Notes: generated by a model not told the origin, from the sequence alone. Counted from the whole stretch's first letter, positions 41,762-42,092 are shown. The stretch: DNA of 55,677 nucleotides, filler included, from an uncultured virus (IMG/VR IMGVR_UViG_2512564001_000011) (5 parts of one record of this genome joined end to end with filler, not necessarily neighbours in it); one strand, 5' to 3'. Numbers and translations: made by a program.

Positions 41762-41835
41762 CCGCCGATACGACGAAATTTACGGCGGACAGCACAACGT
41801 TAACAGCAGATAGCACAAAAAGTAAGGACAAATGA
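41749..41835 (+). other. -1 frameshift signal and TAD-repeat extension of the capsid protein
   Basis: C CCA AAG, 6-nt spacer, CCGCCG/CGGCGG stem; -1 frame reads ALTADTTKFTADSTTLTADSTKSKDK*. Confidence 0.75.
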
Positions 41836-42092
41836 TGGTAGATATTCAAAAAATCAATATTGGTACAAGTGCTGATGACGGCACTGGCGATACCTTGCGT
41901 AATGCCTTTAGCACAGCCAATGACAACTTTGAAGCGTTGAGTACCCTGCCTGAAAAAGGTGATAAGGGTGATAAAGGCGATACGGGAGTTGGTATTAAAA
42001 AAATAACCTCATCAAAAGAAGGTAAGGTGGTTACGCTAATTATCCAATTAACAGACGGAACAAAACAAACACCTTCATTCGAAATTTCATAA
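41832..42092 (+). CDS. Mini-fibre: T4 gp9/gp10-like N-terminus plus short collagen repeat
   Basis: INIGTSADDGTGDTLRNAF..ANDNF; GDKGDKGDTG. Confidence 0.75.
   Translation: MMVDIQKINIGTSADDGTGDTLRNAFSTANDNFEALSTLPEKGDKGDKGDTGVGIKKITSSKEGKVVTLIIQLTDGTKQTPSFEIS

Follow-up and report, generated by a model that had tools for sequence, protein, structure and literature searches.

A short ORF behind a phage capsid gene as a candidate mini-fibre with a T4 gp10-like attachment module, possibly docked on a frameshift-encoded repeat tail

The stretch of DNA analysed here (the window, 55,677 nt) comes from an uncultured virus and carries a short ORF directly 3' of a protease-capsid gene in a siphophage head module. 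The analysis points to a small fibre-like product of this ORF, the mini-fibre, and to a peptide tail of repeated heptads that would be added to the capsid and tail-tube proteins by programmed −1 frameshifting. We believe, with a probability of about 0.55, that the trimeric gp10-type module of the mini-fibre docks on the heptad tail, so that mini-fibres would be hung in sub-stoichiometric numbers on both the head and the tail by frameshifting. A functional link between the tail and the mini-fibre is strongly suggested at the level of sequence, as the mini-fibre gene travels with the frameshift cassette and as similar tails and modules are encoded next to each other in other phyla.

The mini-fibre gene most likely extends from 41835 to 42092 on the plus strand and encodes 85 aa, with an alternative start at 41832 that gives 86 aa. 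The preliminary description had reported the longer form (41832-42092), and this ORF is indeed present on reading; its start is corrected here to the second ATG. The ATGATG at 41832-41837 includes the TGA at 41833-41835, which lies in the −1 frame relative to the capsid ORF. The ordinary capsid stop (TAA, 41759-41761) lies 73 nt upstream of the mini-fibre ORF, so translation of both frames bore out the earlier statement that the overlap is with the stop of the −1 extension and not with the normal capsid stop. We place the start at 41835 because the closest homologue in the alignment (P0003, 85 aa) begins with MVDIQK, because TGATG or TAATG is found in all eight related loci, and because a related-strain contig that spans the region has a G>A change at 41834. 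This change abolishes the ATG at 41832 and converts the TGA to TAA, and the ATG at 41835 is kept. The ORF has 24 homologues, of which the named ones are all from Arsenophonus, and the gene is taken to belong to an Arsenophonus prophage. A family-level sample of 121 genomes returned only the A. nasoniae genome that was already known.

A Shine-Dalgarno sequence AAGGA (41824..41828, plus strand) lies inside the last codons of the −1 extension, at a spacing of 6 nt. The gene is followed by an intrinsic terminator (42095..42125, plus strand) that separates it from the portal gene and had likewise been noted before. Its stem-loop at 42095-42115 has 8 pairs, 5 of them G-C, and is followed by a T-run. 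A terminator at this position fits a strongly expressed capsid-plus-decoration unit. Expression of the mini-fibre had also been suggested to be tied to the frequency of frameshifting, a claim which now appears weak. Folding found no stable RNA structure over the mini-fibre Shine-Dalgarno sequence or ATG, and the overlap of stop and start is also common in gene pairs with an in-frame tail and no frameshift. Obligatory coupling of mini-fibre translation to frameshifting was considered as the main reading and was rejected, since neither the Shine-Dalgarno sequence nor the ATG is occluded. Translational coupling is thus partial at most, because the gene has its own accessible ribosome-binding site and the overlap is general to such pairs, and also because one trimer per tail would need more chains than frameshift events yield.

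The product appears to consist of three modules. Residues 5-38 (41847..41948, plus strand) form a gp10/gp9-like N-terminal module with a DDGTGD loop followed by a helix at residues 20-37. Four Gly-X-Y triplets, GDKGDKGDTGVG (41958..41993, plus strand), then span G42-G53 in the 85-aa numbering, and this stalk differs in length among relatives. Residues 54-85 (41994..42089, plus strand) are predicted to form a three-strand beta domain (AF2 pLDDT 92-97; phrog_21621, E 2e-7), which is the small C-terminal knob of the preliminary description.

Profile comparisons confirmed that the N-terminus of the mini-fibre is homologous to the first ~40 residues of T4 gp10/gp9, as the earlier reading of the motif had held. 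Residues 6-38 match Pfam PF07880 (T4_gp9_10_N) with E 2.4e-4 and 21.7 bits, a score under the curated gathering cut-off of 25 bits; the match spans only positions 2-34 of the 175 in the profile, so the full domain is not reached. Two relatives score alike (P0024, 20.7 bits; the L063 ORF, 20.5 bits), and the homologue P0004 has a precomputed PF07880 match. The N-terminus also matches PHROGs 677 and 958. A profile of the mini-fibre family (A3) matched T4 gp10 residues 2-41 with E 8e-8, and a profile of the module only (A5) matched T4 gp10 residues 2-36 with E 2.9e-11, a T4-like gp9 (9f4a_LN) with E 6.4e-5 and T4 gp9 itself with E 0.069. Only one gp10N-type gene is found within the window.

The label of collagen mini-fibre needs some qualification. 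The Gly-X-Y run is real, and with only four triplets the label is generous for the copy in the window. The collagen repeat PF01391 gave no match to the window mini-fibre at E<=1. Among the relatives, P0024 matches it with E 1.1e-8, and both P0019 and P0024 have precomputed matches. The AF2 monomer of the mini-fibre has a pLDDT of 79 and a pTM of 0.38, with low confidence over the Gly-X-Y stretch. A Foldseek search of this model against the PDB returned no solved fold at E<=0.001, and residues 46-85 retrieved from the ESM Atlas solely unnamed viral or collagen clusters. A trimeric state of the mini-fibre is suggested by the gp10 homology together with the Gly-X-Y run or coiled coil. Four triplets are few for a stable triple helix, which counts against the fibre reading.

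The mini-fibre family is modular. The N-terminus is either of type A, which is gp10-like, or of type B (MSYTKTNWENSPS...). The stalk ranges from ~3 to ~17 Gly-X-Y triplets or is replaced by a coiled coil without collagen (in L148), and the protein ends in the beta domain or in a short coiled coil. In a related contig the triplet region measures 68 nt, vs 32 nt in the window, a difference of +36 nt that adds four in-frame triplets. Such module swaps and the in-frame change of the stalk are in keeping with a real, evolving fibre-like protein and not with a gene fragment.

The upstream gene (39806..41761, plus strand) encodes a 651-aa fusion of prohead protease and major capsid protein (Pfam Phage_capsid, E 3.2e-14; Peptidase_S78, E 3.6e-9; phrog_617 major head protein, E 2.8e-187). 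Its 3' end reads ACC CCA AAG CCT TAA, and the slippery heptamer C_CCA_AAG (41749..41755, plus strand) stands in the capsid phase, as X_XXY_YYZ, one codon ahead of the 0-frame stop. This heptamer is described as highly shift-prone in E. coli (PMC5009743). A predicted frameshift-stimulating hairpin (41762..41788, plus strand) begins 6 nt after the heptamer and pairs CCGCCG (41762-41767) with CGGCGG (41783-41788) around a 15-nt loop. Its stem is made of the Thr-Ala-Asp codons of heptads 1 and 2, which pair through complementary synonymous codons. A −1 shift at this site would extend the capsid protein by the 26 residues ALTADTTKFTADSTTLTADSTKSKDK (41755..41835, plus strand), ending at the TGA that overlaps the mini-fibre start.

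A second cassette of this kind ends the gene of the 152-aa tail tube protein (46705..47163, plus strand; Pfam Phage_TTP_13, E 9.3e-64). It extends from 47151 to 47237 on the plus strand, with the heptamer at 47151-47157, the hairpin at 47164-47190 and the −1 extension ALTADTTKFTADNTRLTTDSTKNKNT, which stops at the TAA at 47235-47237. No mini-fibre gene follows it. The two cassettes share 42 identical nt before they diverge, and 76 of 104 nt overall. The same heptamer is present in 11/11 cassettes examined, and the hairpin begins 6 nt after it in all ten of the ten TAD-type cassettes and closer in the type-B cassette. The cassette hairpins have a mean z of ~ −2.3, vs 0.0 for 14 heptad tails encoded in frame. 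The letters of the stem differ in relatives (CCGCT/AGCGG, CGGTG/CGCCG). Of the changes that the related-strain contig shows in the −1 frame, 4 are silent and 5 conservative, with silent ones at D and T positions, and the heptad motif is kept in the −1 frame of every relative, indicating that the open frame is under protein-level constraint. All of this would agree with the addition of the same repeat tail to both the capsid and the tail-tube proteins by −1 frameshifting.

Related loci in the Morganellaceae show how closely the mini-fibre gene is associated with these cassettes. In Morganella (L010/L232, also IMG/VR L003) the capsid gene has the heptamer, the hairpin CCGCT/AGCGG and the tail AVTADTVKVKADTTKKRTS, which runs through TGATG into a mini-fibre of 91 aa, and the tail tube is a different protein of 234 aa with a cassette of its own. 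Proteus mirabilis (L011/L231) has a capsid cassette with the tail VITVDNAEVTTDTTHRRIN and TAATG, a mini-fibre of 73 aa after the capsid gene and a tail tube without a tail. Arsenophonus G124 (L149) has its capsid and tail-tube genes arranged like those of the window, with a mini-fibre of 112 aa after the capsid. In Arsenophonus G130 (L148) an unrelated 410-aa HK97-like capsid protein with a separate protease carries a tail, the tail tube also carries one, and the mini-fibre of 100 aa comes after the tail-tube cassette. The A. nasoniae loci L009 and L012 are short contigs in which the capsid end is unreadable; the tail-tube cassette is present and is followed by the mini-fibre gene. L062 holds a decayed copy of the capsid cassette with a mini-fibre gene that is decayed by frameshifts and stops. 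Taken by position, the mini-fibre gene follows the capsid cassette in the window, L003/L010, L011, L149 and L062, and the tail-tube cassette in L009, L012 and L148. In 8/8 loci, from Arsenophonus, Morganella and Proteus prophages, the stop of the extension and the mini-fibre ATG overlap.

The cassette is thus found at the ends of three capsid families (the protease-MCP fusion, the 410-aa MCP of L148 and, with another tail, the PF09950 MCP of L147) and of two tail-tube families (TTP_13 and the 234-aa TTP of L232). Capsid relatives in Stx phages and in Salmonella phage FSL SP-016 have no tail and no mini-fibre, and an unrelated small ORF occupies the slot. The Proteus prophage with a tail on its capsid and none on its tail tube counts against the docking reading. 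Several of the Morganellaceae tails carry two heptads, which weakens the idea of three heptads for three subunits. Type-B mini-fibres occur on A. nasoniae phage-plasmids with a PF09950-type capsid gene upstream, and represent a single lineage (L067 and L068 are near-identical). The A. nasoniae plasmid NZ_CP038623.1 (L147, 5884-5960) has a PF09950-type capsid gene that ends with C_CCA_AAG and a 6-bp G+C hairpin. Its −1 tail has 23 residues and is not of the TAD kind, and a type-B mini-fibre gene begins 38 nt after the tail stop. A type-B mini-fibre together with a different capsid and a non-TAD tail fits the pairing of tail and module.

In other phyla, two to three heptads with the consensus h-T-A-D-x-T-x (x-T-A-D-x-T-x) are encoded immediately 5' of gp10N-type genes. 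They form in-frame C-termini of gpJ-like central tail fibres (phrog_31, phrog_5616) and also end a large tail protein (phrog_1101), baseplate wedge subunits (phrog_17744) and a virion structural protein. These heptad-tailed proteins outside the Morganellaceae are sites of fibre attachment. The preliminary description had looked to a co-occurrence of DGTGD-type proteins with upstream TAD heptads, and a survey found it. In a discovery set the pattern lies upstream of 25/53 gp10N-type starts vs 5/410 control starts, which were those of other ORFs of >=100 aa in the same loci, called mechanically; the pattern was written after this set had been seen and is post hoc there. For a replicate the pattern was fixed beforehand and applied to fresh IMG/VR loci, where the best 80 of 610 relatives gave 78 loci; L151, which duplicates the contig of L003, was left out, so that 77 remained. 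Here 27/77 loci were positive vs 1/258 controls (26/71 distinct upstream sequences; Fisher p 2e-18). The replicate query alignment (A5) was built mostly from heptad-positive loci, and with this bias in locus choice and the post hoc pattern the prevalence is not an unbiased figure. A few of the positives look spurious (L164, L174, L184).

Three D residues at 7-residue spacing are found in 20 of the 26 distinct positives, and three is the commonest number of heptads. Among the replicate positives, 6 have a stop-to-ATG gap of −1 or −4 and 16 have one of 1-15 nt. A heptad tail is missing upstream of about half to two-thirds of the gp10N-type genes examined, which counts against the docking reading. 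The module itself is very widespread, with 14,931 cluster representatives at E<=0.001, and almost always occupies residues 1-38. Among the best matches, proteins of 200-430 aa such as P0028 and P0033 have three or four tandem gp10-type modules per chain and may be the single-chain equivalent of a trimeric receiver. Tandem modules in one chain and the usual three heptads together suggest one heptad per module. An AF2 model of the three-module P0033 (alignment A6) has one helix per module, and its pLDDT of 62 and pTM of 0.54 are too weak for conclusions on packing.

We found no heptad tails in T4 gp6-gp12, and none upstream of gp9 in the cyanophage S-CAM22. In the Methylophilales phage Melnitz-3 (L230, 2300-2453) the protein 5' of a gp10N-type baseplate gene ends in a loose F-x-D repeat with 6-residue spacing, which may be a diverged form of the tail. 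A profile of the heptad tail searched against the PDB returned at best an unrelated oxidase with E 5.1; as T4 also has no heptad tails, the proposed contact lacks a structural precedent. A PDB search with the L013 fibre and with its upstream protein gave T4 gp10, 8vjh and 8rk3, and no solved contact of tail and module was identified among these matches.

A possible mechanism can be drawn from these observations. The ORF would encode a small homotrimeric fibre in which an N-terminal gp10-type docking module is joined by a short stalk, collagen or coiled coil, to a small beta knob. Programmed −1 frameshifting in the final codons of the capsid and tail-tube genes, directed by C_CCA_AAG and a hairpin 6 nt downstream, would give a minority of the subunits a 26-residue tail of three h-T-A-D-x-T-x heptads. 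As the tail lies behind the frameshift site, only some subunits would carry it. The tail might act as a socket-filling peptide for the N-terminal module, and one three-heptad tail may engage three fibre subunits. The mini-fibres would then probably be an adhesive decoration, like the collagen-like or Ig-like decorations of other phages. In the Morganellaceae, the tail would have been relocated to the ends of the capsid and tail-tube genes and the receiver reduced to a mini-fibre. The earlier idea that an attachment module was reused as a head and tail decoration is supported in part, by the gp10/gp9 homology, the location in the head module, the presence of the tail on both proteins and the linkage to the cassette. 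More tentatively, and with odds somewhat against it in our judgement, the tail and the ~38-residue gp10-type module could be an ancient, widespread and portable plug-and-socket. Its three repeats would engage a trimer and so solve a monomer-to-trimer mismatch, and the pair would have moved freely among tail tips, baseplates and, by frameshifting, capsids and tail tubes, with the recoding efficiency setting the number of fibres per virion.

The siphophage module of the window runs from the large terminase gene (38083-39774) through the protease-capsid fusion and the mini-fibre ORF to the portal gene (42139-43476). It then continues with a gene for a 370-aa protein, head-tail connector genes, the tail tube gene, a tail assembly chaperone gene and a tape measure gene. 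The tape measure protein has 613 aa, whereas those of relatives have 965-1098 aa. In this region (47817-53483), genes for DUF6012, a topoisomerase and H-NS come after the tape measure gene in place of tail-tip genes. The short tape measure and the lack of tail-tip genes mark the siphophage module as a remnant, and the copy in the window is therefore probably not virion-competent. The 370-aa protein (43473-44585) contains recurring PKPKDGK/KDGKD stretches and matches CBM_5_12 (E 2.4e-6). In PHROGs it falls under 'portal protein' (phrog_1289), with fusions to portals in phrog_2271; a further surface or adhesion part of the head is a possible role. Near 45500-45870 an N run has duplicated flanks with the same 100-plus residues on both sides, an assembly gap in the head-completion and tail genes.

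The window contains other elements of note. A second, P2-like module (19486-34583) has sheath, tail-collar fibre, P2 capsid and GPO scaffold genes on the minus strand and a T4-type terminase gene on the plus strand. Two equal 355-aa ORFs lie at 904-1971 (minus) and 9598-10665 (plus), and the first matches the replication initiator RPA with E 1.5e-76, so the window may be plasmid-borne. A 923-aa protein (4013-6784) combines a ToxA_N dermonecrotic-toxin N-terminal domain (E 1.4e-48) with leucine-rich repeats, and a 460-aa protein (10788-12173, minus) has a PipB2_N domain with pentapeptide repeats. Both look like effector-like symbiont cargo.

Other explanations of the pairing were weighed. It is conceivable, if unlikely, that the mini-fibre binds the capsid lattice directly and that the frameshift tail has a separate role such as weak adhesion, in the manner of frameshift-added Ig-like domains, the two being adjacent as both are surface accessories. 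The mini-fibre genes that come straight after a capsid gene, in 5 loci and also for type B, would suit this arrangement, as would SPP1 gp12, a small collagen-like trimer at hexamer centres (PMC7602432), and the frameshift extensions of capsid and tail proteins that exist without partner proteins (PMC5009743). Direct binding to the lattice gives no account of the mini-fibre genes after the tail-tube cassette in L009, L012 and L148, of the heptad tails that end tail-tip and baseplate proteins ahead of gp10N-type genes in other phyla, or of the tail-less capsid relatives that also lack the mini-fibre. Docking on the tail, as we propose, is in line with all three. We think it distinctly improbable that the stretch encoding the heptads serves chiefly, at the level of DNA, as a recombination linker for swapping fibre genes or the cassette between phages, with a peptide that has no binding role. 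The 42 identical nt common to both window cassettes and the movement of the cassette among unrelated capsid and tail-tube genes could be read in this way, and conserved modular boundaries of fibre genes are generally thought to help exchange, a point also raised in the RBPseg discussion. What is conserved across phyla, however, is the peptide h-T-A-D-x-T-x, with differing codons and G+C, and the changes at the D and T positions in the related-strain contig are silent. A linker need not be translated, yet the frame is always open to or near the next ATG.

There is little probability that the tail, in place of being a stable dock, acts transiently during translation, as a template or chaperone on which the fibre encoded by the next gene begins to trimerise. 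Overlaps of stop and start or very short gaps between the tail and the fibre gene are common, and trimeric fibres often need assistance in assembly, both of which such a role could explain. Known fibre chaperones, however, are separate and usually downstream proteins, and tails far from any fibre gene (47151 in the window, L149, L232) have nothing near to template. It is very hard to believe that the ORF is no more than the decaying, functionless N-terminal end of a tail-fibre gene. Its very small size, the remnant state of the prophage and the L062 copy broken by frameshifts and stops would suit decay, but ORFs of 73-112 aa are intact in three genera and keep the N-terminal motif. In-frame changes of stalk length, two alternative C-terminal modules and the gene's own Shine-Dalgarno sequence and terminator also argue against decay.

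If the heptad tail docks the gp10-type module, the placement in the virion of thousands of uncharacterised phage fibre genes would be explained, and a sequence rule would predict which protein carries which fibre. Frameshifting would have a new use, the dosing of attachment sites on the capsid and tail instead of the addition of a domain. A tag of 20-26 residues with a trimeric receiver of ~40 residues would also be a compact natural display or coupling system for phage engineering. No description of the pairing of heptad tail and module was found in the literature available as open-access full text.

The mini-fibre can be compared with several known systems. T4 gp10 and gp9 share with it the motif of the first ~38 residues and are trimeric proteins that attach other parts, whereas the mini-fibre is without the middle and C-terminal domains of gp10 and belongs to a head module and not to a baseplate. 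T4 gp7, gp8 and gp9 have no heptad tail. SPP1 gp12, a collagen-like trimer of very small size whose gene lies in the head module, decorates the capsid and is dispensable for its integrity (PMC7602432). It resembles the mini-fibre in size, in the collagen-like run and in gene position; the two are compared by description. SPP1 gp12 differs in that it is described as binding hexamer centres directly, and no frameshift tail or gp10-like module is reported for it.

Recoding at the 3' end of the capsid gene that gives a minor C-terminally extended form is described for Lactobacillus phage A2, Listeria phages A118, A500 and PSA, and gene 10 of T3/T7, and the major tail gene of A2 and of the Listeria phages is also recoded at its 3' end (PMC5009743). 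These extensions are whole domains, often Ig-like, whereas in the window a repeat peptide of 26 residues would be added, apparently to tag a separate fibre. In the head fibre of RcGTA, the Ile/Leu-Gly repeats of one chain contact each subunit of a pentameric base and so resolve a symmetry mismatch (PMC7296036). This is the same logic as that proposed here for three heptads and a trimer. The RcGTA case differs as the fibre and not the virion protein carries the repeat, the base is a pentamer, the sequence has no relation to the heptads and no frameshift is involved. At the tail tip of RcGTA and of roseophage R4C, one monomer of the Megatron/gpJ type holds one fibre trimer through the N-terminal rod of the fibre, and the fibre gene follows that of the monomer (PMC10276861 and PMC7296036). 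The heptad-tailed proteins of L013, L025, L043 and L047 are of the same Megatron/gpJ kind; the L013 fibre and its upstream protein matched no PDB chain named R4C or RcGTA. Collagen-like decoration of capsids, frameshift-extended capsid and tail proteins and gp10-type attachment modules are thus already known, and what appears to be new is a short repeat tail as the product of frameshifting, its pairing with a separately encoded receiver, and the association of tail and module across phyla.
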